Positions 1,594 through 64,000 of a stretch of 64,000 bases of DNA are shown one piece after another. The stretch spans positions 200,853-264,852 of the forward strand of contig CAWATZ010000006.1 of assembly GCA_963784995.1 (NCBI GenBank), written 5' to 3'. This DNA is from an uncultured Planctomycetota bacterium (lineage in GTDB: Bacteria; Planctomycetota; Planctomycetia; Gemmatales; Gemmataceae). How positions within the stretch are numbered: position 1 is the stretch's first letter; each line of letters opens with the position of its first letter. Made by a program: the position numbers and the translations under genes. Below the pieces are notes generated by a model that was given only the letters and a program-made list of their open reading frames with translations, searched no databases and was not told where the DNA came from.

Positions 1594-3154
1594 ATGCCTG
1601 GCCTTTCGATCCGTCTGAGTCTGTGTCTGACCTGCCTCGCCGCGTTGCCGGCAGCCCACGCCGCCGACCCGACCGACCCTCGGCAACTGGCCGCCCGCAT
1701 CGACCGCCGCCTCGCCAACCGCTGGGAAGCAGCCGGCGTGAAGCCGGCCGACCGCAGCGACGATGCCGAGTTTCTCCGCCGCCTCTCGCTCGACCTCACC
1801 GGCAAGATCCCTTCCGTCGCCGAGGTTCGCCGCTTCCTGGCCGACCGCGCACCCGACAAGCGAGCCGTCCTCGTCGAGCGAATGCTCGCCGGTCCCGGTT
1901 ACGTCACGCACTCCGCCGGGACCTGGCGTCGGCTGCTCGTTCCCGACAGCCGAAAATCAAGTCGGCCGCGAGGCAGCCGTACTCGCACTGGAGAAATGGC
2001 TCCAGAAGCAATTCGCCGACAACGTCGGCCTCGACCGGCTGGCCCGCGAGCTGCTCACCTTCTCGCTGGACGAAACCCGGCCCGGCCGGGTCGATCCCGC
2101 CGAGCCGTCGCCGCGGATGTTCTACGCCGGCCGGGAGGAGAAGCCCGACGAACTGGCCGCGTCGATGACGCGCCTGTTCCTGGGCGTCCGGCTGGAGTGC
2201 GCCCAGTGCCACGATCACCCCTTCGTTCGCTGGAAACGGCAGGACTTCTGGAGCCAGGCCGCCTTCTTCACCAGCCTCCGCCGTCCCGCGGCAGCGACCC
2301 GCGCATTGACCATCCCCGGCACGGAACGCACCGTCCGGGCCCGGTTCCTCGATGGCCAGGCGCTGCCCGACGGCAAGGGTGATGGCCGGCCCGTCCTTGC
2401 GGATTGGCTAACGAACTCCGAGAACCCGTTCTTCGCCCGGGCCGCCGTCAATCGGCTGTGGGGCCAGTTCTTCGGCGTCGGTCTGGTCGATCCGGTCGAT
2501 GACATGACCGAGGAGAATAAGCCCAGCCATCCCGAACTGCTCGATGAGCTGGCCCGTGCCTTCGTGGTCAATCGCTTTGACCGCAAGGTCGTCATCCGCG
2601 CCATCGTGCTGTCGGACGCTTACCAGCGGAGCAGCGTCCTGAATTTAGCCCCGAAGGGGCGACAGTCAATAGACCAGGGCGTGAGCCCTGGGTTAGGCGC
2701 AGCTCCGCCCGATCCGCGTCTGTTCAGCCGGATGAACGTCAAGAGCCTGACTCCGGAGCAGGTCTACGACAGCCTGATCGAGGCCACCGGCTACCGGGGC
2801 CGGGAGATCGCCCGCCAACGCGCTCAGCTGCTGACGCGCTTCCCAGGCGTCGAACAGGTGCTGGAAGGCCAGACCGGCATCCCGCAGGCCCTGGCCCTGA
2901 TGAACGGCGACCTGCTGACCAGCGCCCTCCGCCTGGACGGCGACAACACCCTCAGCGCCGTCGTCAACAGCCCGTTCCTGGACACGGCCGGACAGGTCGA
3001 GACGCTGTTCCTGGCCGCACTCGGCCGGCCGCCTCGTCCCGGGGAAAAGGCTCGCATGGTTGCCCACGTCGAGAAGAGTTCCGCGAAAGGCATCGCCCTG
3101 AGCGACGTCTTCTGGGCCCTGCTCAACAGCGCCGAGTTCGTCCATAACCACTGA
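1594..3154 (+). CDS. Secreted DUF1549 (PSCyt2) / DUF1553 (PSD1) protein with an apparent +1 frameshift near 1935-1950
   Basis: A signal peptide and the RRLSLDLTGKIPS...DKRAVLVERML motif are in frame 1. The PSD1 part (CAQCHDHPF...) continues in frame 2 from about 1940. Confidence 0.6.
2647..2692. repeat. Solo arm of the family-C palindromic element, inside the PSD1 coding region with the frame kept open
   Basis: 45/46 identity to arm 2 of the palindrome at 37998-38043 (agccccgaaggggcgacagtcaatagaccagggcgtgagccctggg). Read through as ...LNLAPKGRQSIDQGVSPG.... Confidence 0.6.
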
Positions 3155-3162
3155 GGAACGCC

Positions 3163-4443
3163 ATGACCGCCTCCAACCGGCATCCTTCGCGCAGAGACTT
3201 CCTGCGGCTGACCACGGCCGGCCTGGCCGGCGTGTCACTTTCCGCGTGGTTCTCCGCCCTGGCCGCCGACCCCCAACGGAAACGCTCGTGCATCCTGCTG
3301 TGGATGGCGGGCGGTCCTTCCCAGATGGACACGTTCGACCTCAAGCCCGGACACAAGAACGGCGGGCCGATCCAGGAGATCGCGACCAGCGTTCCCGGCA
3401 CCCGCATTAGCGAGAATCTGCCGCAGGTCGCCGCCCAGATGAAGTACCTGGCGATCGTCCGCTCGATGCACACCAAGGAAGGCGACCACGGCCGGGCGAC
3501 GTATCACCTGCGCACCGGCTATCCGCGGCAGGGACCGATCCACTACCCGGCCCTGGGCGCTCTGGTGTCCCACGAAATCGGCACGGCGGGAGCGGAGCTG
3601 CCGAACTTCGTCAGCATTGCCTCCGGGCGCGACAGAAACCCCGCAGCTTCCGGGCCGGGCTTTCTCGGTCCGCAGCATGCCCCGCTCGTCGTCGGAGGCG
3701 GCAGCGACAACCTGCAAGTGCAGGACCTGCGGCGCGGCGCGGGCGTCGGCGAGGCCCAGGCCGAGGCGCGCATCGACCTGCTCCGGGGACTGGAGAACGA
3801 CTTCGTCGAGAAGCATCCCGACCCCGGCCCGCAGGGGCATCAGGCGTCGTATGAGCGAGCCGTCCGCCTGATGAAACCGGACGCCGCCCGCGCCTTTTCC
3901 CTTGAGGAGGAGAAGTCGGCCCTGCGCGACCGCTACGGCCGGAACCGCTTCGGCCAGAGCTGCCTGCTGGCCCGCCGGCTCATTGAGCGCGGCGTGCCCT
4001 TCGTGGAGGTCAGCCTTGGCGGCTGGGACACGCACTTCCAGAACTTCCCTGCCGTCCGTCGGCTGTGCGAGACGCTGGACCCGGCCTGGGCGACGCTGCT
4101 GACCGACCTGGAGCAGCGCGGCCTGCTGGACACGACCCTGGTGGTGTGGATGGGCGAGTTCGGCCGGACGCCGCAGATCAACGGCCAGGTGGGACGCGAT
4201 CACTTCCCGGCCGCGTGGACGACGGTGCTGGGCGGAGGCGGCATTGCGGGCGGCCAGGTCGTCGGCCGGACCAGCGCCGACGGCGTCACGGTGGAGGATC
4301 GGCCGGTCTCGGTCCCCGACTTCATGGCGACCATCTGCCGGGCGATGGGACTCGACCCGGCCAAACAGAACCGCTCCAACGTCGGCCGGCCCATCCGCCT
4401 CGCCGACGCCGGAGCCACGCCGATCAAGGAGGTCCTCCGGTGA
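3163..4443 (+). CDS. DUF1501 family protein with a Tat signal
   Basis: RRDFLRLTTAGLAG twin-arginine motif. Conserved DUF1501 body. It lies immediately downstream of the PSCyt2/PSD1 gene, the usual Planctomycete pairing. Confidence 0.85.
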   Translation: MTASNRHPSRRDFLRLTTAGLAGVSLSAWFSALAADPQRKRSCILLWMAGGPSQMDTFDLKPGHKNGGPIQEIATSVPGTRISENLPQVAAQMKYLAIVRSMHTKEGDHGRATYHLRTGYPRQGPIHYPALGALVSHEIGTAGAELPNFVSIASGRDRNPAASGPGFLGPQHAPLVVGGGSDNLQVQDLRRGAGVGEAQAEARIDLLRGLENDFVEKHPDPGPQGHQASYERAVRLMKPDAARAFSLEEEKSALRDRYGRNRFGQSCLLARRLIERGVPFVEVSLGGWDTHFQNFPAVRRLCETLDPAWATLLTDLEQRGLLDTTLVVWMGEFGRTPQINGQVGRDHFPAAWTTVLGGGGIAGGQVVGRTSADGVTVEDRPVSVPDFMATICRAMGLDPAKQNRSNVGRPIRLADAGATPIKEVLR

Positions 4444-7267: not shown

Positions 7268-9050
7268 ATGTCAAAACAACACCGATTCCCGTTCTTGGGC
7301 CTGCTGACACTGATCTGGTTGGGGTGGGGGCTGACCAGCACCGCCGCCGAACCCCTTCCCTCGCTCGACGATCTGTTGCGAGAGTATCAAACGCTTGGCT
7401 TGCCGGTGCCGCCCAGGAAAGCCAAACTGGTGCGGTACGAGGCCGGAGGAGGCGGGATCGTTGACCGCAAAGTCCAGCCCAAGGTCTATGGTCTGGCTTT
7501 CGAGGTCAAACAGGGAACCAAAACAGAGCATCCTTTTCTTCTCCGTGGCACTCTCGAGTGGCAGCCGAGGTGGGACCCTCACACCCGCGAAGTGGACCCG
7601 GAGCCAGCTGCCATCAAGGACCTTGTTGTGGGCCCGTCTGACAGGCTGGTTCTGGCCATCCAGTGTCATGAACGCGGCTGGCACAAGCTAGCCACCCATC
7701 TGCTGGAGAGGAGCCACAAAAAGTGCAAACAGCCACTGCGGAATCCATTGCTTCCGCTAGCGTGGTCCTACTGGGAAGACCATCTGACCACGCCGAAGAT
7801 CGACCGTGCCCCCATTGCCAAAAGGCTGAAAGAGCTTATCCGGCAGGACAAAGAACTGGACACGGAAAGCAACCGGGCGCTGCTCCGGTCGCTGGATCTC
7901 GCTCTCGTGCCCAGTAAGGCCAAACCGGGGAGCATCCAGGCGATGATCGACGACCTTGTCGATTACGACGCCGACACGGGAACCATGGGGTTTTTCAGGC
8001 GGGAGGATCGCTACTGGCGCATTGCCAGGCTGGGTTTTGACGCCGTGCCCGCTCTGATCGAACACCTGGACGACGACCGTCTGACACGAGCCAGGATGAT
8101 TGGTTTCCACAACTTCGGCTCCTGGAACCTTCGTGTTCAGGACGTTGTCAGCGACCTGTTGGAGGATCTGGCGGGGCAGAACGTTGGAAGGAATTGGCTG
8201 CGGCGTCAGCAGGGCTTTGCCGTCCAGAAGGCCGAGGCCCAAAAGTGGTGGGAGCAAGCCCGCAAGGTTGGCGAGGAAACCTACCTGCTGGATCACGTCT
8301 TGCCCGCTAAAGCCAAGGAAGGCGGTCGTGACCAGGTCGAGCGCTCACCTGGTGGAATTGATTCTGTTCAAGTATCCAAAGCACGTACCTTCTCTCTACC
8401 GGAAGGTCCTCGACGTGCGTCCCGAACTGGACAGCTCGATGCTGGCAGACGCCGTCCTCCAGTGCAAACTCCCGGACAAGGATAAACTGGATCAGTTTCT
8501 GTACGCTGCCAACCGCAAAGACCTCAATCACCGCCTGCCAGCTTTCTACGCCATCAAGGACCTGGACAAGAAGCGATTCACCTCGCTCTGGCTTGCCACC
8601 GTCGAAGCTTTCCCGAAGGACGTTCCGGGGCCCTACTGGAAATGTCCCCAAGCTGACATCGCCAGCATGGCGATCGAAGCCGATGACCCCCGCGTCTGGC
8701 AGACCCTGGAGAGAGTCGCCAAACGCTCTGCCCTCGGCTTGCGGATGGAGTTGCTGCGTTCAGTCGGTGCGCCAGGAGACAAGCGGCATCGGCTGGAGCG
8801 GCTCCGTCTCCTGGCATGTTTCCTGGATGATGCGACCTTGCGGGACGAGGATTCCAGCAGCAAGTTTGCCGGGCCAGGCGCCGGGTTCCCCTACCACAAG
8901 ATTGAGGTAAGAGATTTCGTGGCACTGGAGATCGCGCAATTGCTGGGGAACGACGTCGAATGGAACCTGGAACGAACTCCGGAACAATGGGCGAAAATCC
9001 GCAGTCAGGTTCAGGAGGCATTGAAGCGCGAATTCAGCAAGACGAAGTAG
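7268..9050 (+). CDS. Hypothetical secreted protein, probably one gene with an apparent frameshift near 8315-8335
   Basis: Signal peptide at 7268. Protein-like sequence switches from frame 2 (ORF 7268-8485) to frame 3 (ORF 8100-9050) around the codons PAKAKE|VVTRSSAHLVELILFKYPKH. Confidence 0.4.
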
Positions 9051-9143
9051 CGCCAAAGCCTGGAACCAGCCACAGATTCAGTCTCGGCCTCACCTTCTGA
9101 GCGGCCGTGGAACTTCTGAGTGGAGGAGGCCACGGTCGAACAA

Positions 9144-10490
9144 TCACAGGTCCGGCTGGAGCAAGCGAACGTGCCTCCCCTGCCGCTCCAGCAGCGCCTC
9201 GGCGGCCAGGTAGCCGCTGCGCACCGCTCCCTCCATCGTGGCGGGCCAGCCGGTGTTTGTCCAGTCACCGGCCAGCAGCAGGTTCCGGATCGGCGATGCC
9301 TGGCTCGGCCGCCACCGGTCCACGCCAGGGACCACGCTGAACGTCGCGGCATGCTCCGTCACCACCCGTCCGCGCAGCAGCCGAGCCTTGCGGGCCTCGG
9401 GAAACAGGCTCGCCAGCTCCTCCACGATCCGCCGTTGCACCTCCTCGTGCCCCAGGCCACGGAACTCCCGGGCGGCACTGACCACCACCTGGACGTAATG
9501 CTCGCCGGGGGAGGACTGACCTCGGTTGAAGAGCCACTGACCTAGCGTTTGGAGCAGCACCACGTGCGGCAGCCGGGTGATCGGCCGATCGTACCAGAGA
9601 TGGACGCTGGTTATTGGCGAAATCTCCAGCCGACGCAGGTTGGCGAAGGTCGGCTCGCTCTCGACCACGTTCTCCGGCAGCAGGTCGAGCAATCGGTCAA
9701 AGGGCACCGCGGGGATGAACCAATCAGCCTCCACGGTGCTACCGTCACGCATTCGCAATTGCTGGATTCGGCCGTCGGTCAGGGTAAGCTGCTTGCCCCC
9801 CTGTCCCAGCAGCAAGCGGACCCCGTGCTTGTCGAGCCACCCCTGCAGCTCCTGACCATAGAGCCGGCCCAGCGGCACCGTGGGCACCGACACCTCGAAT
9901 CCTCGGCGATGGCGCAGGAAAGCGTCCACGAACACCTTGCGGGCGTATTTCAGCCCGATCCGTTCCGGCGTCTCGTTCAGGGCGCTGACCAGGACCACGC
10001 TCCAGAAGCGTTCGATGACGCCGGGCGTCTGGCGATGTCGTTGCAGCCACTCCAGGAACGGCACATCGGCATCGGCGGGCGTGCGCTTCAGACAGGCCAG
10101 GGCCCAGGCGATCCGCAGTTTCTCCAGCGGCCCGAGGTAATGCGCCCCCAGGAACGCCCGGGCCAGGTGCAGCGGCGCGGGCAGCGGGTCGGCCTGGAAC
10201 TTGCTGATCCGGCGGTCGGGGGTCATGAAGTAGAGACACGGTTGCGGCTGCAGCAGGTGCTGGATGCCGACGGTCCGGCAGAAGTGGGCCAGGTTGGTGC
10301 AGCAGCCCATGCTGACGTGCTGGCAGGCGTCGATCAGCTGGCCCGTGCTGGTGTCGGTGAAGCTGCCGGCCCGGCCGCCCAGGCGGTTGCGCGACTCCAG
10401 CACGGTCACGTCCAGCCCCTGGCCGGCCAGCGCTGTCGCCGCCGCAAGTCCGGCCAGTCCGCCGCCGACTATGATCACCCGCTCCGCCAT
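9144..10490 (-). CDS. FAD-dependent amine-oxidase-family desaturase (HpnE-like squalene-associated desaturase)
   Basis: VIIVGGGLAGLAAA Rossmann N-terminus. ...LESRNRLGGRAGSF...QHV.MGCCTNL matches the HpnE / phytoene-desaturase-like pattern. Confidence 0.5.
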   Translation of the reverse strand: MAERVIIVGGGLAGLAAATALAGQGLDVTVLESRNRLGGRAGSFTDTSTGQLIDACQHVSMGCCTNLAHFCRTVGIQHLLQPQPCLYFMTPDRRISKFQADPLPAPLHLARAFLGAHYLGPLEKLRIAWALACLKRTPADADVPFLEWLQRHRQTPGVIERFWSVVLVSALNETPERIGLKYARKVFVDAFLRHRRGFEVSVPTVPLGRLYGQELQGWLDKHGVRLLLGQGGKQLTLTDGRIQQLRMRDGSTVEADWFIPAVPFDRLLDLLPENVVESEPTFANLRRLEISPITSVHLWYDRPITRLPHVVLLQTLGQWLFNRGQSSPGEHYVQVVVSAAREFRGLGHEEVQRRIVEELASLFPEARKARLLRGRVVTEHAATFSVVPGVDRWRPSQASPIRNLLLAGDWTNTGWPATMEGAVRSGYLAAEALLERQGRHVRLLQPDL

Positions 10491-10871
10491 TGCTTTCTCC
10501 GCATTTCCTTGGCTGCCTGGCCCAGGAACACGGTTGAAGTGTACTGCAGGTCAGTGCGTTTTGCCCAGGGCAGATCGGAGGAGCGCGGAATGGACCTCTG
10601 ACGCAAAGCAACGGCAGTCGTCTCCTGGCAGGCTGGCAGGGAAGCCGAAAACATCCGTTTGCTATCGGCGGGAGTCGCTCAGCGACAGCCAGGGACATCG
10701 CCCGGCACGAGCGGCCTTGCCCCTCTTCTGACACGCTCTGGCAGGTGAGTGCGTCGCCTTCTCTCCGGACGGTGCCACCCTGGCCAACTGCGGCGAGACG
10801 CCCGCGAGGGCCGGCGAGGTGCTGCTCTGGCGGAGCGGCCGGCAGCTGGAGTTGGGCGAGCGGTGCTCAGA

Positions 10872-11050
10872 CAATCGAAGCCGGCCTGCCTGCCCTGCCG
10901 GCCACTTTGCTGGGAATGGCGGAGACGCCGGAAGCAGTCCGGCATTGTCCCACAGATGCCAGGAAGGGGCATTTCGGCGCGTGCCTGCCACGCGCCAGGG
11001 TATTCGGGAGGGGCTGGCGTTCAAGCTGCCTCGCTGTCAATCCGTGCCAG
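10872..11050 (+). repeat. Conserved noncoding element, copy 1 (candidate structured RNA or cis-regulatory leader)
   Basis: About 80% identical to the reverse complement of 44925-45105. Both copies carry a hairpin at the same position with different stem sequences (gccgga/tccggc here, gccagag/ctctggc in copy 2). Confidence 0.45.
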
Positions 11051-11117
11051 CCAGCAGCAAGGGCAGGCACGGTCCATTCGGAGTGGCTGCGATCCCTTGT
11101 TGCTTCCCAATCCCGAT

Positions 11118-11214
11118 GGCCGAACGCCAAGGATTCGATCCGAACTGCCGGCAGACACCGCGACCGTCTGCCAAGCCGGATCGGCAGTTCGGATCGAATC
11201 CTTGGCGTTCGGCC
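11118..11214. repeat. Perfect 33-bp inverted repeat (hairpin) with a 31-nt loop that holds a nested 6-bp hairpin; lies at the 3' end of the CPBP gene
   Basis: Arm 11118-11150 ggccgaacgccaaggattcgatccgaactgccg is the exact reverse complement of arm 11182-11214. The loop contains gcagac...gtctgc. Confidence 0.8.
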
Positions 11215-11221
11215 CGGTTTA

Positions 11222-11911
11222 TCAGGAGTAACCCATCACTGCAACGATATCGAATAATGCGTGCAGACAGATCCCAGGCACCAAGCTCCCTTGCCACAAG
11301 AAAAGGCCAGCAAAGAGCAGCCCGACAACGAAATAGACTGGGAACAGAACCAGCCCAGCGATGCCATGGACAAAGACGAATGCCAGCGTCGCCAAGCCGA
11401 CGGCCCGCCAAGTGCGCATGCCACGCCCCTTCAGGAGACGGATGCTGAACCCGCGGTAAACCAACTCCTCGCAAAACCCCGCAGTGAAACTCATGAAGAT
11501 CCAGAACACTCGTTCGCCCAAAGTATTCGGGGACATCCCCGAGCGCTCCGATAATGGTCCATCGTTGGCGGCCGGGCTTTCGTGCAGGAGAATCAAGGCG
11601 AGACCGGCTACGAGGGGGATTCCAACCATCGCTGCGACGCGGACCGCCGAGAGATCAAGCCCGATGTCGTCCAGTCGCCCGCCTGCCCGCTTGAGAAGCA
11701 CGACGATCAAGGCAACGCTGCCCCAGTGAAGCAGAGCAATCGAGGCCCAGAACGACAGGTAGAATGCGTGGTTGCGCCGGAACCAGAGGCCGACCGACCA
11801 AGGTAAGAAGCTGTTGGCCAGGTAGAGGATCGGTAGCCCGACGAACACGAGCAGCACCTGCCAATGGGGTAAGCTCGTCGCAAACGTCGGAGCGGGTTCC
11901 TTTGTGGCCAT
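11222..11911 (-). CDS. CPBP family intramembrane metalloprotease (CAAX-protease-like)
   Basis: Polytopic membrane protein with the EELVYRG and FxxxH motifs. Confidence 0.8.
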   Translation of the reverse strand: MATKEPAPTFATSLPHWQVLLVFVGLPILYLANSFLPWSVGLWFRRNHAFYLSFWASIALLHWGSVALIVVLLKRAGGRLDDIGLDLSAVRVAAMVGIPLVAGLALILLHESPAANDGPLSERSGMSPNTLGERVFWIFMSFTAGFCEELVYRGFSIRLLKGRGMRTWRAVGLATLAFVFVHGIAGLVLFPVYFVVGLLFAGLFLWQGSLVPGICLHALFDIVAVMGYS

Positions 11912-22611: not shown

Positions 22612-22645
22612 CCCAGGGCTCACGCCCTGGCTCGACTCGGGATTG
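22612..22645. repeat. Degenerate partial copy of the family-C element (first part of arm 1)
   Basis: cccagggctcacgccctgg is identical to 37945-37963. The following sequence is only partly similar. Confidence 0.4.
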
Positions 22646-24791: not shown

Positions 24792-24870
24792 GCCGAGCCG
24801 CGCACGCAGCGCAGCGGAGTAAGCGGGCTTTCAGCCCGCTTACTCCGCTGCGCTGCGTGCGCGGCTCGGC
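24792..24870. repeat. Family-A palindromic element, copy 1: perfect 38-bp stem, 3-nt loop
   Basis: gccgagccgcgcacgcagcgcagcggagtaagcgggct ttc agcccgcttactccgctgcgctgcgtgcgcggctcggc. The 32-nt core is identical to copy 2 at 47840-47915. Confidence 0.85.
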
Positions 24871-26835: not shown

Positions 26836-26919
26836 CCCCGGGTTGCGCTGCGCTCCACCCGGGGCTTTAGTCCCAACACCCGGAGTAAAGCCCCGGGTGG
26901 AGCGCAGCGCAACCCGGGG
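26836..26919. repeat. Family-B palindromic element: perfect 34-bp stem, 16-nt loop, between the XPB gene and the downstream ORF
   Basis: ccccgggttgcgctgcgctccacccggggcttta ... taaagccccgggtggagcgcagcgcaacccgggg. Shares gcgctgcgc and ggagtaa(a)gc motifs with family A. Confidence 0.8.
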
Positions 26920-37293: not shown

Positions 37294-37899
37294 TCAAGGT
37301 TCCTCCGCCCCGGCCAGCAATTCCCGCAACCGATGCAGTCCCCGGTGCAGCAGCCCGGCCACGGCCGGGCGGGTACAGCCGAGGGTCTCCGCCACCTCGA
37401 CCAGCGGCCGGCCCTGGAGATGGTGCAGCTCGACCGCCAGCCGTTGTTTCTCGGGAAGGGCCTGCAAGGCGCGGGTCAGCCGGACGACTTCCTCTTGCCG
37501 GACCATGCGGGCGCTGGGCGAACTCTGGTCGGCGGCCAGGAACGCCTCCAGCCGGGCCGAGGACTGGTCCATCTCGGCCTGCAGCGCCTTCTCCCGGCCC
37601 ACGTCCCGGCGAGCGCGGCCAAGCCGGCGCAGCTCGTCGGTGAGGTTGTTGGACAGGATGCGCCGCAGCAGCGGCAGATACTGGTCCGAGGGCGGGGCCA
37701 GTTCCTGCAACAGCTTGCAGGCCTCGAAGAGTGTCTGCTGGATGACACCGGACAGGTCCACCTTGCCCTGCCAGCGCTGCTCGACGTGCAGCCGGGCCAG
37801 CAAGGCCAGGTAATCACGGTAGGACTCCAGGTGTCGGGCCAACTCGTCGGCGGAGTCGCTCACGGTTCCCTCGCTGATGGCTTCCTGGGAAATGCACAT
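37294..37899 (-). CDS. ECF-type RNA polymerase sigma factor, 1 bp upstream of the kinase gene
   Basis: Sigma-70 region 2 (YRDYLALLARL) and region 4 (LPEKQRLAVELHHLQGRPLVEVAETLG). Confidence 0.8.
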   Translation of the reverse strand: MCISQEAISEGTVSDSADELARHLESYRDYLALLARLHVEQRWQGKVDLSGVIQQTLFEACKLLQELAPPSDQYLPLLRRILSNNLTDELRRLGRARRDVGREKALQAEMDQSSARLEAFLAADQSSPSARMVRQEEVVRLTRALQALPEKQRLAVELHHLQGRPLVEVAETLGCTRPAVAGLLHRGLHRLRELLAGAEEP

Positions 37900-37944
37900 T
37901 CTGATTGTACGAGGTTGGTTGGCGAGACCGCAAGATGCCCCGCA

Positions 37945-38043
37945 CCCAGGGCTCACGCCCTGGTCTATTGACTGCCGCCCCTTCGGGGCTGATTCTTAGC
38001 CCCGAAGGGGCGGCAGTCAATAGACCAGGGCGTGAGCCCTGGG
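37945..38043. repeat. Family-C palindromic element: perfect 46-bp stem, 7-nt loop, in the divergent promoter region upstream of the ECF sigma gene
   Basis: cccagggctcacgccctggtctattgactgccgccccttcggggct gattctt agccccgaaggggcggcagtcaatagaccagggcgtgagccctggg. Partial copies at 2647-2692 and 22612-22645. Confidence 0.85.
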
Positions 38044-41834: not shown

Positions 41835-41919
41835 CCAGGCGAGCGGCGCGGCGTCAGCCCGCCGGTATCGGTGCCAGCGTCGGATACACCGGCGGGCTGA
41901 CGCCGCGCCGCTCGCCTGG
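41835..41919. repeat. Perfect 32-bp-stem palindrome (21-nt loop) between cdsA and the PhoH-like gene
   Basis: Arm 41835-41866 ccaggcgagcggcgcggcgtcagcccgccggt is the exact reverse complement of arm 41888-41919. Confidence 0.8.
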
Positions 41920-47826: not shown

Positions 47827-47839
47827 ACTGCGTTCGTCC

Positions 47840-47915
47840 GAGCCGCGCACGCAGCGCAGCGGAGTAAGCGGCCCGCAGGAAGACCGCTTACTCCGCTGCG
47901 CTGCGTGCGCGGCTC
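47840..47915. repeat. Family-A palindromic element, copy 2: perfect 32-bp stem, 12-nt loop, between thrC and the MoaD-like gene
   Basis: gagccgcgcacgcagcgcagcggagtaagcgg cccgcaggaaga ccgcttactccgctgcgctgcgtgcgcggctc. Confidence 0.85.
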
Positions 47916-47946
47916 AGAAAGAAAATCGTCCTTCGGAGGATAAGAT

Positions 47947-48220: not shown

Positions 48221-48571
48221 ATGGCGGACGAGGACGACGCCGGCCTGCCGGCGCCGGATGCCCAGGTGCCGGAAGGGGCGGCGGTCTTTCCCGAGATCCC
48301 CGAGGAGCTGGGCGTCGATCCCCTGTTCCTGGCCATGCTGCATGCCACCGTCTTCCTGGCCGGCTCGACCGAGGAGGTCGTCAACGGCGAGGCCGCCGAC
48401 GAGGCGGTGCAGGCGATGGCCGGGTATCTGCGGCGGCTGACGGGGAAGGAGCTGGCCCGGGTGCGCGAGGACCTGGAGTGTCTGGTGGGTTACGCCCGGC
48501 AATGCGAGTGGCCACGGGAGATGGTGCGCTTCCTCAAGAGCTTCCTGGCCGACTACGGCATCAGCCGTTAG
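48221..48571 (+). CDS. Hypothetical acidic protein (not JAMM-like)
   Basis: ORF begins 1 nt after the MoaD-like stop. No HxH or other metalloprotease motif. Confidence 0.4.
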   Translation: MADEDDAGLPAPDAQVPEGAAVFPEIPEELGVDPLFLAMLHATVFLAGSTEEVVNGEAADEAVQAMAGYLRRLTGKELARVREDLECLVGYARQCEWPREMVRFLKSFLADYGISR

Positions 48572-48658
48572 CCCGACGCGCCAGCGAGGGAGAGGACAAA
48601 ACCCTCGCTGGCGCGTCGGGCTAACGGCCGACTACGGCATCAGCACGGGAGAGACGAA

Positions 48659-55212: not shown

Positions 55213-55297
55213 AGCAAATCGGCCGGCTTGGCAAACCTCTGCCGGAGTGATACGATCATCCTGAACCAACCCTCTCATCCCGGCAAGGAGTGCCGCC

Positions 55298-57800
55298 ATG
55301 CGAATCGTGTCGTGGGTCGTGTCTGCCATTCTTCTCGGTGTTGTGGCGACTGCTGCGCCAGGTCAGCCCGGGATACCTCTGCTCCCAAACCCAAAGTTCG
55401 TGCCGGCGCCTGAGGCCCCTCGCGCCTCTATCTTGGGCGCTCACGCTGCCGTGAACCCTGCCCCGGTCGTCACGGACGAACAGAAGCTGCGGGGTGCTGG
55501 CCTGCGCGTCGATGGCCCGTCCCTGGTGGAGTTCTTTCGGCAACGTGCTTCGCAGGCCACGGACCCCGAAGAGATTAACCCCTGGATCAAGCGCCTGGTG
55601 GATGAGGATGTCGCGGTCCGCTCCCGGGCGGCACGAGTGTTACTGGGCCGCGGCGCTGCCGCGTTGCCTCTGCTGCGGCGGGCGGCCAACGACCTGGGCA
55701 ACCCCGAACTGGCAAGCCAGGCCCAGCGCTGCCTGCGGTTGATCGAAGGAGAAGGCACAACGGTTGTGCCGGCCGCTGCCGTACGCCTGCTGGTCCAGCG
55801 CAAGCCAGCCGGGGCCGTGGAAGCGCTGCTGGACTACCTGCCGGCGGCGGAGACTCCCGCCCTTATCGAGGAAGTGGCCAGCGCCTTGACCGCTCTGGCG
55901 TATCCCAACGACAAGCCGCACTCCGCCTTGCTCGAAGCGCTGACCGACGCCGTGCCGCTGCGTCGTGCGGTGGCCGGCAGCGTCCTGGCCGGCAAGGACC
56001 ACCCCCAGGCACGGCCGTACGTCCGCAAGCTGCTGCGTGATCCCAGGCCGCTGGTGCGGCTGCGTATCGGGCTGGCCCTGGCTGAAGCCAACGACCTGGA
56101 CGGAGTGCCCGTGCTCATCGAGTTGCTGGCCGAGGCGCCTGCCCCGCAGCACAAGCCCATCGAGGAGCTGCTGCGTCGTCTGGCAGGCGAATGGGCGCCG
56201 ACCACGCCACAAGGCGACGATGAGGTTGCCCGCCGCATTCGTCGTGGCGCCTGGGCCAGCTGGTGGCGCGAGAGCGACGGCCCGGCTCTGCTGGCCCAGC
56301 TGCGGCGGCATACGCTCAGCACCAAGGACCAGGCCAGGGTCCAGGCGCTCGATCGAGAAGCTGGGAGACGACGACTTTGAGGTGCGGCAGAACGCCTCGG
56401 GCGAACTGACCGAGTTTGGTGCGCTGGCCGTGCCGCTGCTGCGTGAAGCCAGCCACAGCACGGACGCGGAACGGGCCCGCCGAGCCGAGGAGTGTCTCAA
56501 GGACATTGCCGACAAGGGTGGCAAACCTCTGCCGGAACCTGTCTTGCGGCTGCTGAGCGTGCGCAAGCCAGCCGGGGCCGTGGAGGCGATCCTCGACTAT
56601 CTGCCCTTTGCCGACACTGAGCAGAGGAGAGAAGAGGCACGGACGGCCCTGGCGGTCCTGGCGGTGCGTGAGGGTCGGTTGGAGCCGGCGTTGCTGCGGG
56701 CGCTGGAAGATCCGCTGCCGCTGCGGCGGCTGACCGCCGCGGAGGCCATCCTGGCGGCGAGCCCCCTGGAGCAGCGGGACGCCGTGCGCAAGCTGCTGCG
56801 TGACAGCGACCCGCTGGTGCGGCTGCGTACCGCCGTGGCCCTGGCCGTCAAGCGTGATCGGGAAGCGATCCCGGTGCTGATCGAGTCGCTAGCCGAGGAA
56901 CCCTCCGACGCCAGCGGCGATGCGGAGGAAATCCTGTACCGCCTGGCCGGAGAAAATGGACCGAAGACGTTGCCGGTCAGCGGCACCGCCGACCGCCGCC
57001 AGCGCCGCGATGCCTGGGCGGCTTGGTGGAAGGCGTCCGGTTCGTCGGTCGATCTGGCCGTGCTTGAGAACCACACGCGCTTGCTGGGGTATACACTTCT
57101 GATAAGTTCGGCGGCCGGTCGGGTGCTAGAACTGGGCCGGGACGGCAAGCCGCGCTGGGTCATTGCCGGGCTGGCGAATCCGTTGGATGCCGTCATTCTG
57201 TCCGGTGACCGCGTGCTGATCGCGGAATACACCGGCAAGCGTGTGACCGAACGCGATTTCCAGGGCAAGATCCTCTGGCAAAAGGACGGGCTGGGAGCCG
57301 ATCCGGTCAACGTGCAGCGTCTGGCCAACGGCAACACCTTTATCGCCACGGAGAAGGAGTTGCTTGAGGTCGATCGCGCCGGCAAGACGGTCTGGAGCCA
57401 GTCTTTTCCGAACCTCATGGCAGCGTCCAGATCTCGGGATGGCAGCATCACGTGCCTGGACCAGGCTGGCCAGTGTGTTCGGCTCTCCTCTGACGGCAAG
57501 GAACTGAAGCGGTTTCCTTCCGGAGACAAGGCAGTTTATCACGGCTGCCTCGAAGTGACGGCCAACGGCCGGATCTTGATCGCGCAGCACAATGAGAACA
57601 GGGTAATAGAAATGGACGCCGAAGGCAGAGTTCTCTGGCAAGCCGCGGCACCGAAAATTGCCAGAGCCACGCCTATGCCCAACGGGCACGTACTGGTCGC
57701 CAGCTGCGACAATCAGCTGGTGACCGAACTGGATCGAGCCGGAAAGGTCGTTTGGGAATACAAGACCGGCATGCCGGTCTCGCGAGCCCGGCGGCGCTGA
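55298..57800 (+). CDS. Secreted HEAT-repeat + beta-propeller protein, tandem paralog A; single-base frameshift (extra g at about 56351)
   Basis: Collinear with intact paralog B. The frame breaks at ...QARVQAL|IEKLGDDDFEVRQNASG. Confidence 0.6.
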
Positions 57801-57872
57801 CCTGTCCGCTCCCTATGATGGGGATTCCGACCACCCTTGGGCACTCGCCCCATTCAGGCCAGGAGAGCCTCC

Positions 57873-60359
57873 ATGCGCAACGTAGTGCGGCTGGTGTTCG
57901 CCCTCGTTCTTTTCTGCGTGGCTTCCACGGCGTTTGGCCGGCAGCCGGGCGATCTTCCCAGAGCCCGAGTCGTTCCCGTGGGGCCTTCGTCAGCGGCCCC
58001 GGCTGCTGGGGATTCCGGCTCTCCCGCCCAGGACGAAGAGAGACTCCGGACCGCGGGGCTGCGCGTCGATGGGCCGTCCCTGGTGGAGTTCTTGCGGCAG
58101 CGGGCTCAACTGGAGACCGACCCCGACGGGCTCAACGCCTGGATCAGGCGGCTGAATGACGCTGATCCGGGAGTCCGCTCGCGTGCCGCGCGCACCTTGC
58201 TGGGTCGCGGCAAGGCGGCGCTGCCCCTGCTGCATCGCGCGGCCAACGATCTGGGCGACCCCGAACTGGCTGGCCGGGCGCAGCACTGTATCGAGGTCAT
58301 CGAATGGCAAGGTAGCACCTTGCCGGCCGCGGCCGCACGGCTGCTGGCCCATCACAAACCGGCCGGGGCGGTGGAAGCGCTGCTGGCCTATCTGCCCGCC
58401 GCCGAGACTCCTGCCCTCGTCGAGGAAGTGGCCAGCGCCCTCACGGCCCTGGCTTATCCGGACGACAAACCGCACGCCGCTTTGCTCGCAGCGCTCACCG
58501 ACGCCGTGCCGCTGCGTCGCGCCGTGGCCGGCAGCGCACTGGCCGGCAAGGATCATCCCCAAGCACGACCAGCCGTTCGCAAGCTGCTGCGTGATCCCAG
58601 GCCGCTGGTCCGTCTCCGTGTCGCGCTGGCCCTGGCCGAGGCCAACGACCTCGAAGGCGTGCCCGTTCTGATTGATCTGCTGGCAGAGGTTGTGCCGCCG
58701 CGGGACAAGCCCATCGAGGAACTGCTGCGGCGGCTGGCGGGCGAATGGGCGCCGACGCCGCCGGCCGGAGACGATGCGGTCGCCCGGCGGATTCGCCGGG
58801 ACAGCTGGGCCGTCTGGTGGCGCGACAGCGATGGCCCCGCCCTGCTGGCCGAAGTGCGCAGCCACACCCTGAGCGGCAAGGACCAGGCCCGGGTGCTGGA
58901 CCTGATCGACAAACTGGGCGCCGACGACTTCGAGATGCGGCAGAATGCTTCCGGCGCGTTGACCGAGTTCGGGGCCCGGGCCGTGCCGCTGCTGCGGGAA
59001 GCCACGCACAGTCCCGATGCGGAACGGGCACGGCGGGCCGAAACGTGTCTGCAGGAGATTGCCGACAAGGGCGGCAAACCCTTGCCGGAACCCGTGTTGC
59101 GGCTGCTGAGGGTGCGCAAACCGGCCGGCGCGGTGGAGGCGTTGCTGGCTTATCTGCCCTTTGCCGACAACGAGCAACGAAGTGAGGAGGTGCGCCAGAC
59201 GCTGGCGTCCCTGGCGGTGCGTGAGGGCCAGCTGGAACCAGCCTTGTCGCGGGCGCTGGAAGATCCACTGCCGCTGCGGCGGCTGGCCGCTGCCGAGGCC
59301 ATCCTGGCAGCGGGAGCCCTGGAGCAACGGGACGCCGTGCGCAAACTGCTGCGTGACGGTGATCCGCTGGTGCGGCTGCGGACCGCCCTGGCCCTGGCCG
59401 TCAAGCGTGATCGGGAAGCGATCCCGGTGCTGATCGAGTCGCTGGCCGAGGAACCCTCCGACGCCAGCAGCGAAGCGGAGGAAATCCTGTATCGCCTGGC
59501 CGGCGAGGGCGGGCCGAAGGTCGAGCCGGCCGGCGACACAGCCGGTCGGCATCAGCGCCGTGACGCCTGGGCGGCCTGGTGGAAGGCGTCCGGTTCGTCG
59601 GTCGATCTGGCCGTGCTGGAGAACCACGTGCGCCAACTGGGGTACACGCTCCTGGCAATGGGGGAAAGTGAAAAGGATGGTCAGGTGCTGGAACTGGGCC
59701 GGGACGGCAAGCCGCGCTGGATCATTACCGGGCTGGCGGCTCCAGTAGACGCCTACGTCCTTCCCGGCGATCGCGTGCTGATCGCGGAATACCTCCTCAA
59801 GCGTGTGACCGAACGCGATTTCAAGGGCAACATCCTCTGGCAGCGAAACCTGGGCACCCATCCGGTCAACGCGCAGCGTCTGGCCAATGGCAACACCTTC
59901 ATCGCCACGGACAACGAGTTGCTCGAGGTCGATCGCGCCGGCAAGACCGTCTGGAGTCAGGCTTTCTCGAACCTTCCGGCGGCGTACAAATCCCGGGATG
60001 GCAGCATCACTTGCCTGGACGGCAGTGGCCAGTGTGTTCGCCTCTCCTCGGCCGGCAAGGAACTGAAGCGGTTTCCTTCTGGAACCTCCGAAGTGAGCGT
60101 CGGTGGCATCGACGTGCTGGCCAATGGCCGGATCTTGATCGCGCAGCGCAAGGAGAACCGGGTAGTGGAACTGGACGCCGAAGGCAAAGTCCTCTGGCAA
60201 ACCGCCGCGCCGGGAAGTTTCTCGGCCACACGCCTGCCCAACGGGCATACGCTCGTTGCCAGCACCGACAACAAGATAGTGACCGAACTGGACCGGGCCG
60301 GAAAGGTCGTCTGGGAACACAAGGCGGGGATGGAGGTCTTCCGAGCGCGACGGCGCTGA
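57873..60359 (+). CDS. Secreted HEAT-repeat + beta-propeller protein, tandem paralog B (intact)
   Basis: Signal peptide. Two internally duplicated HEAT modules (PAGAVEALLAYLP..., DPLVRLR.ALALA...). C-terminal 4-6-blade propeller (ANGNTFIAT..., DGSITCLD...). Confidence 0.75.
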   Translation: MRNVVRLVFALVLFCVASTAFGRQPGDLPRARVVPVGPSSAAPAAGDSGSPAQDEERLRTAGLRVDGPSLVEFLRQRAQLETDPDGLNAWIRRLNDADPGVRSRAARTLLGRGKAALPLLHRAANDLGDPELAGRAQHCIEVIEWQGSTLPAAAARLLAHHKPAGAVEALLAYLPAAETPALVEEVASALTALAYPDDKPHAALLAALTDAVPLRRAVAGSALAGKDHPQARPAVRKLLRDPRPLVRLRVALALAEANDLEGVPVLIDLLAEVVPPRDKPIEELLRRLAGEWAPTPPAGDDAVARRIRRDSWAVWWRDSDGPALLAEVRSHTLSGKDQARVLDLIDKLGADDFEMRQNASGALTEFGARAVPLLREATHSPDAERARRAETCLQEIADKGGKPLPEPVLRLLRVRKPAGAVEALLAYLPFADNEQRSEEVRQTLASLAVREGQLEPALSRALEDPLPLRRLAAAEAILAAGALEQRDAVRKLLRDGDPLVRLRTALALAVKRDREAIPVLIESLAEEPSDASSEAEEILYRLAGEGGPKVEPAGDTAGRHQRRDAWAAWWKASGSSVDLAVLENHVRQLGYTLLAMGESEKDGQVLELGRDGKPRWIITGLAAPVDAYVLPGDRVLIAEYLLKRVTERDFKGNILWQRNLGTHPVNAQRLANGNTFIATDNELLEVDRAGKTVWSQAFSNLPAAYKSRDGSITCLDGSGQCVRLSSAGKELKRFPSGTSEVSVGGIDVLANGRILIAQRKENRVVELDAEGKVLWQTAAPGSFSATRLPNGHTLVASTDNKIVTELDRAGKVVWEHKAGMEVFRARRR

Positions 60360-60437
60360 CCGGCCTGTCCGCTCCCCCGGCAGCGGGGATTCCGACCACC
60401 CTTGGGAACTCGCCCCCTTCAGGCCAGGAGAGCCTCC

Positions 60438-62924
60438 ATGCGCAGCGTATCGCGGTTGACGTTCGCCCTCGTTCTTTTCTGCGTGGCTTCCGCGGCGTTT
60501 GGCCGGCAGCCGGGCGATCTTCCCAAAGGCCGAGTCGTTCCCCTGGGGCCTTCGTCAGCGGCCCCGTCTGCCGGGGATTCCGGCTCTCCCGCCCAGGACG
60601 AAGAGAGACTCCGGACCGCGGGGCTGCGCGTCGATGGGCCGTCCCTGGTGGAGTTCTTGCGGCAGCGGGCTCAACTGGAGACCGACCCCGACGGGCTCAA
60701 CGCCTGGATCAGGCGGCTGAATGACGCTGATCCGGGAGTCCGCTCGCGTGCCGCGCGCACCTTGCTGGGTCGCGGCAAGGCGGCGCTGCCCCTGCTGCAT
60801 CGCGCGGCCAACGATCTGGGCGACCCCGAACTGGCTGGCCGGGCGCAGCACTGTATCGAGGTCATCGAATGGCGAGGCAGCGCCGTTGCCGGCCGCGGCC
60901 GCACGGCTGCTGGCCCATCACAAGCCTGCCGGGGCGGTGGAAGCGCTGCTGGCCTACCTGCCCGCCGCCGAGACTCCTGCCCTCGTGGAGGAAGTGGCCC
61001 GCGCCCTCACGGCCCTGGCTTATCCGGACGACAAACCGCACGCCGCCTTGCTCGCCGCGTTGACCGACGCCTTGCCGCTGCGTCGCGCCGTGGCCGGCAG
61101 CGCCCTGGCCGGCAAGGATCATCCCCAGGCACGACCAGCCGTTCGCAAGCTGCTGCGCGATCCCAGGCCGCTGGTGCGTCTGCGTGTCGCCCTGGCCCTG
61201 GCCGAGGCCAATGACCTCGAAGGGGTGCCCGTTCTGATTGATCTGCTGACTGAGGTTGCGCCGCCGCGGGACAAGCCCATCGAGGACCTGCTGCGGCGGC
61301 TGGCGGGCGAATGGACGCCGACGCCGCCGGCCGGAGACGATGCGGTCGCCCGGCGGATTCGCCGCGACAGCTGGGCCGTCTGGTGGCGCGACAGCGATGG
61401 CCCCGCCCTGCTGGCCGAAGTGCGCAGCCACACCCTGAGCGGCAAGGACCAGGCCCGGGTGCTGGACCTGATCGACAAACTGGGCGCCGACGACTTCGAG
61501 ATGCGGCAGAATGCTTCCGGCGCGTTGACCGAGTTCGGGGCCCGGGCCGTGCCGCTGCTGCGTCAAGCCAGGCACAGTCCCGATGCGGAACGGGCAAAGC
61601 GTGCGGAAGAGTGTCTGAAGGATATTGCCGACAGGGGCAGCAAACCCTTGCCGGAACCCGTGTTGCGGCTGCTGAGGGTGCGCAAGCCTGCCGGGGCCGT
61701 GGAGGCGTTGCTGGATTATCTGCCTTTTGCCGACAACGAGCAACGAAAAGATGAGGCTCGCAAGGCGCTGGTGGCTCTGGCGGTGCGTGAAGGCCGGCTG
61801 GACCCCGCCTTGTCGCGGGTGCTGGAAGATCCGCTGCCGCTGCGGCGGCTGGCCGCTGCCGAGGCCATCCTGGCAGCGAGTCCCCTGGAGCAGCGGGATG
61901 CCGTGCGCAAGCTGCTGCGGGACGCTGATCCGCTGGTGCGGCTGCGTACCGCCGTGGCCCTGGCCGTCAAGCGTGATCGGGAAGCGATCCCGGTGCTGAT
62001 CGAGTCGCTGGCCGAGGAACCCTCCGACGCCAGCGGCGAAGCGGAGGAACTCCTGTCCCGTCTGGCCGGCGAGGGCGCGCCGAAGGTCGAGCCGACCGGG
62101 GGCACGGCCGGTCGCCGCCAGCGCCGTGACGCCTGGGCCGGCCTGGTGGAAGGAGTCCGGTTCGTCGGTCGATCTGGCCGTGCTGGAGAACCACACGCGC
62201 CTGCTGGGGTACACCCTCCTGGCAATGGGAGGAAAAGGATGGTCAGGTGCTGGAACTGGGCCGGGACGGCAAGCCGCGCTGGATCATTACCGGGCTGGCG
62301 ATTCCGGTAGACGCCCACGTCCTTCCCGGCAACCGTGTGCTGATTGCCGAGATCCAGGGCAAGCGTGTAACCGAACGCGATTTCCAGGGCAAGATCCTCT
62401 GGCAAAAGGAGAGGCTGGAAGCCAGGCCGGTCAACGCGCAGCGTCTGGCCAATGGCAACACCTTTATTGCCACGGAGGCCGGGTTGCTTGAGGTCGATCG
62501 AACCGGCAAGACCATCTGGAGTCAGGCTTTTCCGAACCTCATGGCAGCGTACAAATCCCGGGATGGCAGCATCACCTGCTTTGACAAAGCTGGCCAGTGT
62601 GTTCGCCTCTCCTCGGCCGGCAAGGAGCTGAAGCGGTTTCCTTCGGGAAGCTCCGACTTGAGAGTTGGTGGCATTGACGTGACGGCCAATGGCCGGATCT
62701 TGATCGCGCAGCGCAAGGAGAACAGGGTGTCGGAACTGAACGCCGAAGGCAAAGTCCTTTGGCAAGCCGCCGCGCCGGGAATTTTCTCGGCCACACGCGT
62801 GCCCAACGGACATACGCTCGTTGCTGGCCGCGATACCAAGCTGGTGACCGAACTGGACCGGGCCGGAAAGGCCGTCTGGGAACACAAGGTGGAGAAGGAG
62901 GTCTTTCGGGCGCGGCGGCGCTGA
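60438..62924 (+). pseudogene. HEAT + beta-propeller tandem paralog C with at least 3 indels relative to B (+1 at about 60883, +1 at about 62137, -5 at about 62230)
   Basis: Spread over three frames (ORFs 60402-61214, 60721-62310, 62247-62924). Nucleotide alignment to B pinpoints the indels. Confidence 0.6.
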
Positions 62925-63002
62925 CCGGCCTGTCCGTTCCCCTTGGCGGGGGTTACGATCATCCTTGAGGAAACCCTTCCATACCTGACCAGGAGTGCTT
63001 CC

Positions 63003-64000
63003 ATGCGCAGCGTATCGTGGCTGGTGTTGGCGATCCTTCTTTTCCTGCGGGGCTGCCGCGGCGCTTGGCCGACAGCCGGGTGATCTTCCCAAAACCCGAG
63101 TCGTCTCTGTGGGATCCTCGCCCGCCCTGCCAGCCGGGGATTCCAGTTCCCCCAGCCAGGACGAAGAGAAACTCCGGACGGCGGGCCTGCGTGTCGATGG
63201 CCCGTCCCTGGTGGAGTTCTTTCGGCAACGGGCCCAACTGCAAGCCGACCCGGAAGAGCTCAACACCTGGATCAGGCGTCTGAATGACGCGGACCCGGAA
63301 GTCCGTTCTCGTGCCGCAGGCAAGTTGCTGGGCCGAGGCACGGCGGCCTTGCCCCTGCTGCGTCGCGCGGCCAACGACCTGGGCGACCCCGAACTGGCTG
63401 ACCGGGCCCGGCACTGCATCGAGCTGATCGACAGGCACGGCACGACGACCGTGACAACGGCCGCGGCCGTTCGCCTGCTGGTCCAGCAGAAACCGGCCGG
63501 GGCCGTGGAAGCGCTGCTGGCCTATCTTGCCGGCTGCCGAGACTCCCGCTCTTGTGGAGGAAGTGGCCCGGGCCCTGACCGCAATGGCTTATCCTGACGA
63601 GAAACCGCATGCCGCCTTGCTCGCAGCGCTCACGGATGCCTTACCGCTGCGCCGTGCCGTGGCCGGTTGGGCCCTGGCCGGCAAGGACCATCCCGAAGCC
63701 CGGCCGTACGTCCGCAAGCTGCTGCGCGATCCCAAACCGCTGGTGCGTCTCCGCGTCGCCCTGGCCCTGGCCGAGGCCAACGACCTCGAAGGAGTGCCCG
63801 TTCTGATTGATCTGCTCGCCGAAGTTCCACCTCCGCGGCACAAGGCCATCGAGGAGCTGCTGGGCCGGCTGGCGGGCGAATGGGCACCGACTGCACCACA
63901 AGGCGACGATGCGGTTGCCCGCCGGATTCGTCGTGGTGCCTGGGCCAGCTGGTGGCGCGAGAGCGACGGCCCGGCTCTGCTGGCCCAGGTACGTCGGCAC
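63003..64000 (+). CDS. HEAT + beta-propeller tandem paralog D (partial, runs off the window end); at least 2 single-base frameshifts (about 63045-63070 and about 63530)
   Basis: Collinear with B from MRSVSWLVLAILLF. Each break is a +1 insertion relative to B. Confidence 0.5.

Follow-up and report, generated by a model that had tools for sequence, protein, structure and literature searches.

The locus described here raises the question of how a palindromic repeat came to lie inside a protein-coding gene. The gene is found in a 64,000-nucleotide (64-kb) stretch of planctomycete DNA (contig CAWATZ010000006.1, positions 200,853 to 264,852; referred to here as the window and numbered from its first base) and encodes a secreted protein with PSCyt2 (DUF1549) and PSD1 (DUF1553) domains. 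An initial annotation of the window had noticed that most of one arm of an intergenic palindrome recurs within the DUF1553 open reading frame (ORF), and it had proposed either that the repeat arm was inserted in frame into a conserved domain or that the repeat had captured coding sequence. The reading that we favor, with a probability of roughly 0.8, is that a single mobile unit of the Rfam family RF01687 (Acido-Lenti-1), resembling a repetitive extragenic palindrome (REP), was recently inserted into a variable linker of the PSD1 domain. The features on which this reading turns are as follows.

1594..3154, plus strand: host gene, encoding the secreted PSCyt2 (DUF1549) and PSD1 (DUF1553) protein as assigned by Pfam; residues 1 to ~119 are read in frame 1, all later ones in frame 2.
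2647..2692, minus strand: repeat unit in the gene, one complete, two-hairpin RF01687 unit of 46 nt within the coding region for PSD1, antisense to it in the Rfam orientation.
2645..2692, plus strand: putative inserted codons, TT plus the 46-nt unit, 48 nt in all or exactly 16 codons (LAPKGRQSIDQGVSPG).
37945..38043: intergenic inverted doublet of RF01687 units (37945-37990, plus strand; 37998-38043, minus strand) separated by a 7-nt spacer.
22613..22630, plus strand: partial element consisting of the conserved hairpin only (CCAGGGCTCACGCCCTGG), an exact 18-mer match (CCAGGGCGTGAGCCCTGG).

The window holds three full units, including one inverted dimer. When the whole window was scanned with cmscan at the Rfam gathering thresholds (37 bits for RF01687), each unit gave a full-length match to the model (positions 1 to 46 of 46), with scores of 49.7 bits for the gene copy and 49.9 bits for each arm of the doublet. 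The copies share the 45-mer AGCCCCGAAGGGGCG[A/G]CAGTCAATAGACCAGGGCGTGAGCCCTGG (2647-2691, plus strand; 37946-37990, minus strand; 37998-38042, plus strand), for which a match was found in 0 of 100 dinucleotide-preserving shuffles, the chance expectation being none. At 2647-2691 the gene reads AGCCCCGAAGGGGCGACAGTCAATAGACCAGGGCGTGAGCCCTGG, and both arms of the doublet have G for A at the 16th base; over the whole unit the gene copy equals each arm at 45 of 46 bases, which confirms the match that had been reported inside the DUF1553 ORF. The lone mismatch, at position 2662, is synonymous, as CGA (gene) and CGG (arms) both encode arginine. Each strand of the gene copy folds into a pair of hairpins (-25.1 and -23.6 kcal/mol; z scores of -3.85 and -3.71), and no terminator-like site was found at it.

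The arms of the doublet, each 46 nt long and 100% complementary, fold as one hairpin (-119.7 kcal/mol; z score, -16.9). The doublet lies ~35 kb from the gene copy, between an extracytoplasmic function (ECF) sigma factor gene (minus strand; ORF 37294-37956) and plus-strand ORFs that start from ~38120. It resembles a REPIN (a REP doublet forming a hairpin) and is probably the sister or the source of the gene copy. A third, degenerate copy had been placed at 22612-22645, upstream of a gmhB-like gene, and this claim held in part: the 18-nt hairpin is exact at 22613-22630, and a haloacid dehalogenase (HAD)-hydrolase (gmhB-like) domain begins ~120 nt downstream of it, but only half of the element is present (17.8 bits versus the threshold of 37; model positions 2 to 19 only).

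Alignment with PSD1 homologs, the comparison that the initial annotation had suggested, favored insertion. Among 5.8 billion proteins searched, the window product itself and thousands of homologs were recovered, the closest non-self match being 78% identical. When the window protein was aligned with 25 homologs (52 to 82% identity), all 25 were gapped precisely where the repeat encodes LAPKGRQSIDQGVSPG(L), the gap being 16 residues long in 24 of them and 17 residues long in the closest one (P0002). The 16-residue gap fits a gain of 48 nt. P0002, which is 78% identical to the window protein, is encoded on JGI contig L001, where PSD1, DUF1501, and EF-hand genes follow one another downstream as they do in the window, and we therefore regard it as the ortholog. 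Its gene lacks the segment: in a DNA alignment with well-aligned flanks, the window has 66 nt at the insert and L001 has 15 nt, a net difference of +51 nt. Since neither the 25 homologs nor the syntenic contig has the segment, the segment is an insertion relative to all of the homologs compared, and the repeat very probably entered in the window's lineage. The near identity of the unit to the arms of the doublet, together with its absence from the ortholog, points to a recent event.

The insert falls between two codons (AAT / TTA GCC ... CCT GGG / TTA GGC). The TT that precedes the unit, and indeed TTAG, is repeated directly 3' of the insert at 2693-2696, which may reflect a 2-nt duplication or chance. 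On grounds of parsimony, the insertion would span 2645-2692, with a 2-nt duplication and a 48-nt unit fitting equally well. The frame was said to remain open through the arm, which is true locally (2647-2692 translates as ...SSVLNLAPKGRQSIDQGVSPGLGAAPPDPR..., or in its longer context ...AYQRSSVLNLAPKGRQSIDQGVSPGLGAAPPDPRLFSRMNVK...) and does not in itself demonstrate a full-length product, given the upstream frameshift considered below. Four of the six reading frames of the 46-nt unit are stop free, so that about two-thirds of insertions into coding DNA would remain open and the preservation of the frame is no evidence of selection; it would appear to be a property of the length and sequence of the unit.

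The proposal of an insertion into a conserved domain stood as far as the insertion is concerned and failed with respect to a conserved core. The site lies inside the PSD1 envelope, in a poorly conserved linker, where the alignment of the 25 homologs shows a stretch variable in both length and sequence between conserved blocks. In an AlphaFold model, the insert (query residues 229-245) sits within a coil segment (219-261) with a predicted local distance difference test (pLDDT) score of <50, and the model suggests that the linker is probably disordered.

At least 118 stretches of GTDB species-representative genomes contain CCAGGGCGTGAGCCCTGGG, the 19-mer of the conserved hairpin; among the matches listed, the hosts belong to the Acidobacteriota, Planctomycetota, Verrucomicrobiota, Victivallales, Bacteroidota/Ignavibacteria, Anaerolineales, Sumerlaeia, and Desulfobacterota. 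Copies aligned on this hairpin have a common architecture: A, a variable hairpin, a linker of ~13 nt, TAG, and the conserved hairpin. The variable hairpin comprises 55 different stems with 91% Watson-Crick pairs. Its G:U pairs (32) and A:C pairs (23), counted with a crude hairpin caller, are equally rare and show no strand asymmetry, which fits a DNA palindrome better than an RNA made from one strand. There is no conservation outside the 46-nt unit across 126 copies, and a conserved target site or duplication was dropped as a candidate because nothing outside the unit was informative. Directly 5' of the conserved hairpin, the TAG is made up of T in 83, A in 117, and G in 118 of the 126 copies, with a preceding G in 37; in the window copies, the sequence is ATAG and then A. 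In 120 of the 126 copies, the base before the 19-mer is C; all three full window copies have A there, so that the outermost base pair of the conserved hairpin is lost. The shared A marks these copies as a subfamily and would agree with the recent amplification of a single master copy in the source genome. The linker of the window subfamily also contains TTGACT, which, taken with the bases on the far side of the variable hairpin, gives 9/12 sigma-70-like matches that read outward (2642-2669 and 37992-38020, both minus strand); the consensus is weak, and planctomycete promoters may differ.

A second intragenic copy was sought by listing the stop-to-stop ORFs over the unit for the same set of at least 118 hairpin loci, among which no other convincing case emerged. 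In two candidates (L043 and L008), the Pfam domains begin well downstream and the motif probably precedes the true start; three others (L045, L098, and L030) have no Pfam match and are probably spurious GC-rich ORFs.

Acido-Lenti-1 was described from Acidobacteria and Lentisphaerae, sometimes near group II introns, as probably an RNA on the strength of covariation and as not cis-regulatory, and no function was given for it (Weinberg et al. 2010, PMC2864571). One of its seed sequences comes from Koribacter versatilis (NC_008009). Rfam types RF01687 as "Gene; sRNA" (small RNA), and a 2026 preprint, noting that little is known of its function, speculated that it regulates virulence proteases in Tannerella. 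The gene copy has the features of the family, namely, two hairpins, the conserved GCUCACGC loop region, and CUA after it. It differs from the probable trans-acting small RNA of that description in its planctomycete host, in its antisense position within a gene, and in the behavior of the family as mobile DNA in the company of Y1 transposase genes.

This association came to light through an IS200-like protein sequence, which served as a tblastn probe only. The probe found ORFs in four hairpin loci, and all four are Y1_Tnp by Pfam. The Y1 ORF is bracketed by two inverted above-threshold RF01687 matches in L027 (Terriglobia), L074 (Planctomycetota), and L014 (Thermoanaerobaculia). In the reciprocal test, performed with 80 metagenomic loci encoding relatives of these Y1 proteins, 54 loci had at least one above-threshold RF01687 match, and the total of 107 matches in 201 kb compares with three in the 64-kb window. 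Distances were tabulated for 40 of the Y1 loci, 35 having enough flank per side and 30 having both flanks. A minus-oriented copy lay no more than 250 nt upstream of the Y1 start codon in 23 of 35 loci, mostly at 40 to 47 nt, and a plus-oriented copy lay within the same distance downstream of the end of the Y1 ORF in 19 of 35, mostly at 42 to 50 nt; both flanking copies were present in 14 of the 30 loci. Plus-then-minus doublets like that of the window, as well as same-orientation arrays, also adjoin Y1 genes, dimers and arrays being common at the related loci. The arrays have periods of ~124 to 151 nt, and at some loci from Terriglobia metagenome-assembled genomes the units belong to larger mosaics in which additional hairpins (GCCCTTTCAGGGC) lie to either side, an arrangement that recalls bacterial interspersed mosaic elements (BIME type). 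The loci with these arrays or mosaics are L181 (1148-1770), L184 (1987-2280), L025, L066, L073, and L079.

The motif-flanked Y1 proteins carry DHVH, WQ, and YIxxQxxHH and pass the IS200/IS605 model NF033573 (57.7 to 80.7 bits versus a cutoff of 55). By analogy, the arrangement of motif and Y1 gene works like a REPtron, with an enzyme that, by the NCBI model, is no REP-associated tyrosine transposase (RAYT). We did not meet a link between RF01687 and this Y1 clade in the searchable literature, which cannot prove that the link is unpublished.

REPs that lie within genes in frame are known. Dozens of them were recognized by alignment to shorter homologs, and they were most abundant in Opitutus terrae, a member of the Planctomycetes-Verrucomicrobia-Chlamydiae (PVC) superphylum, and in Rickettsia conorii, where they are the Rickettsia palindromic elements (RPE elements) (Di Nocera et al. 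2013, PMC3733652). As in those cases, the unit described here is a short palindromic repeat that lies wholly within an ORF and is read in frame as extra residues. It differs in that the units of Di Nocera et al. are mostly single hairpins of ~20 to 40 bp that encode 7 to 9 residues each and are tagged (GTAG/CGTC), the REP tag being an unpaired GTAG at one end, whereas the RF01687 unit has 46 nt, two hairpins, and 16 residues and a (T)AG tag that is not strictly GTAG; at 46 nt it is also longer than the 20 to 40 bp by which REPs are defined. Whether RF01687 belongs to the GTAG families or the "TIR" repeats of that study was considered; the RF01687 sequence and its encoded peptides were compared with the supplements and do not appear in them, and the acidobacterial TIRYT transposases described there are NPV-type, RAYT-like enzymes of a different clade. 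The likeness to Rickettsia palindromic elements is one of behavior only, that is, in-frame insertion into ORFs, as judged from the same paper and general knowledge.

Like REPINs and REPtrons (Bertels & Rainey 2011, PMC3116915), RF01687 units form inverted doublets that fold into long hairpins and, at related loci, inverted copies that bracket a Y1 HUH gene; unlike them, they accompany IS200-type enzymes rather than RAYTs, and the unit inserted here is a singlet. The Y1 proteins also share the DHVH, WQ, Y---Q--HH signature and the conserved C-terminal extension of TnpA-Y1 "subclass 1.2," to which they are assigned by motif inspection only. That subclass, found mostly in Cyanobacteria and Bacteroidetes, was described as having no insertion sequence (IS) features and generally no terminal secondary structures (Quentin et al. 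2018, PMC6006769); the relatives in Acidobacteriota and Planctomycetota differ from this description in having a regular inverted pair of hairpin motifs.

We envisage that a Y1 transposase from another part of the genome would mobilize the units in trans as single-stranded hairpin DNA, much as RAYTs are believed to move REPs and REPINs. The 48 nt, made up of TT and one unit, would have entered between two codons of the PSD1 gene, where the stop-free frame would be read through as LAPKGRQSIDQGVSPG, and the insert would be tolerated as a hydrophilic Gly/Pro/Ser-rich loop at a surface position that varies in length. Extrapolating from the related loci, we lean, with some reserve, toward mobilization by a Y1 transposase.

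Several observations weigh against the reading as a whole. No close relative with an empty site was found among the 5.8 billion proteins, in which the best non-self match was only 78% identical, so that the exact boundaries of the insertion and any target duplication are deduced indirectly. Similarly, the 24-mer GGCGNCAGTCAATAGACCAGGGCG from the window linker had no exact match in GTDB representatives or JGI metagenomes, which places the source genome and its close kin outside both collections. No Y1 gene was found within the 64-kb window. The Y1 proteins at the related loci fail the RAYT model NF047646 (20.9 to 26.7 bits versus a cutoff of 80), and the comparison with REPs and RAYTs is an analogy. 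REPIN theory has doublets as the mobile unit, and here a singlet was inserted. The AlphaFold2 model, built on the alignment of the 25 homologs, is only moderate (mean pLDDT, 65.7). Finally, the host gene is frameshifted upstream of the repeat, as set out in the following lines, and tolerance of the insert at the protein level may therefore be irrelevant.

1950..1958, plus strand: frameshift site CCGAAAATC, +1, with one base more in the window than in the ortholog.
3163..4443, plus strand: DUF1501 gene, of the kind that usually accompanies PSCyt2/PSD1 genes, intact and syntenic with L001 (PF07394, E = 6e-117, 391.5 bits, profile positions 2 to 390 of 390).

The signal peptide and the first 77 PSCyt2 positions are encoded in frame 1 (1594 to ~1950) and the remainder of the gene is in frame 2, with Pfam scores above gathering for PSD1 (PF07587; 146.4 bits, E = 1.3e-42) and for PSCyt2 (PF07583; 74.5 and 62.3 bits, split over the two frames). 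Consistent with this division, a tblastn search with the ortholog placed its residues 21-134 in frame 1 (1588-1947) and its residues 140-517 in frame 2 (1964-3151). The initial annotation had not noted that the N-terminal ~110 residues lie in a different frame from that of the ORF that it discussed. Programmed frameshifting at 1950 was dropped as a candidate, there being, in our judgment, no recognized slippery context, and the frameshift at 1950-1958 is either an assembly indel or a pseudogenizing mutation.

The second of these alternatives is the basis of a rival account in which the host gene is a recent pseudogene, already dead through the +1 shift near 1950, and the repeat landed or persisted in nonfunctional DNA whose open frame is coincidental. 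This account is compatible with the same mechanism of insertion and differs in its consequence only. The extra base relative to the ortholog, which leaves the N-terminal 110 to 120 residues in one frame and the rest in another, speaks for it, as does the fact that some two-thirds of random phases would stay open through the unit, which makes the open frame weak evidence of function. Set against this, deletion of a single A from the AAAA run at 1953-1956 restores a collinear full-length protein of 519 amino acids, a normal length; the gene is otherwise without stops or shifts over 1.5 kb and is 78 to 82% identical to the ortholog; and at least five further frame breaks in a paralog array in the same window suggest assembly indels or general decay. 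We judge a dead gene to be possible, if rather doubtful. The array (55280-64000) consists of four tandem paralogous genes of ~2.56 kb each, of which only copy 2 (57837-60359, 840 amino acids) is intact; relative to it, copies 1, 3, and 4 have 1, 3, and 1 frame changes, due to 1-nt indels at runs of no more than 2 bases plus one 5-nt deletion. These breaks, too, represent either residual assembly indels or gene decay.

A mis-assembly that spliced the repeat into the gene might be suspected from the several frame breaks and from the probably metagenome-type contig. Such an artifact is very improbable: the 48 nt fit the codons exactly and are bordered on either side by gene sequence that is unique and collinear, the gene copy departs from the other copies at one base, and an assembler that meets a repeat collapses it or breaks off rather than placing one 46-nt unit within other sequence. 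The alternative of capture, in which the palindrome arm derives from the gene and its residues are ancestral to the PSD1 family, has the sequence identity itself in its favor and nothing more; we consider it refuted, as the residues are lacking in all 25 homologs and the motif is an Rfam family seeded from Acidobacteria and Lentisphaerae that occurs between genes in many phyla. It is also improbable that the unit is a functional RNA, either an Acido-Lenti-1 small RNA antisense to the gene or a hairpin module kept in the mRNA for regulation. The Rfam type, the covariation that led the discovery authors to "probably" an RNA, and the sigma-70-like match formed on the Rfam strand by the linker TTGACT and its flanking bases, weak as its consensus is and different as host promoters may be, would agree with such a role. 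Yet the units occur in both orientations, in perfect inverted doublets, and in arrays; they bracket transposase genes at fixed distances; they show no strand bias of G:U over A:C and no terminator; and the copy in question sits within a coding region.

Among the neighboring features, the DUF1501 protein is 77% identical to its L001 counterpart. The PSD1 and DUF1501 genes, adjacent in the window, are separated on L001 by an island of ~4.3 kb with four genes, including one for a DUF4365 protein (7856-11676). The window also has five more families of palindromic doublets, perfect or nearly so, whose arms measure 30 to 38 nt and whose spacers measure 3 to 31 nt.

24792-24870 and 47837-47918: palindromic doublets of one family.
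26836-26919: palindromic doublet.
11118-11214: palindromic doublet.
41835-41919: palindromic doublet.
48561-48631: palindromic doublet.

None of these five families reached an Rfam threshold in the window scan, and they may be other REP-like families of the source genome. The same scan found an S-adenosylmethionine (SAM) riboswitch (RF00162; 46303-46412, plus strand; 81.5 bits) upstream of a plus-strand ORF.

The insertion itself is of a documented type, that of in-frame intragenic REPs, and it shows how short palindromic elements can lengthen surface loops without a cost in frame. Of greater interest is a by-product, the link of RF01687 to a transposase. We give an even chance to a wider reading, in which Acido-Lenti-1 would be no RNA gene but the cis-acting DNA partner, equivalent to a REP or REPIN, of a widespread clade of IS200-type Y1 transposases ("subclass 1.2"-like) that has hitherto lacked a partner and is present in Acidobacteriota, Planctomycetota, Verrucomicrobiota, Bacteroidota, and other phyla. 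On that wider reading, the window would hold a natural filled site, indicating that a lone 46-nt unit can move and add a frame-neutral loop of 16 residues. If RF01687 is a mobile repeat, its "sRNA" annotations would need a different reading in genome pipelines; if the partnership is real, it would provide a testable DNA substrate for an orphan transposase subclass and would extend REP-type systems well beyond the Proteobacteria.

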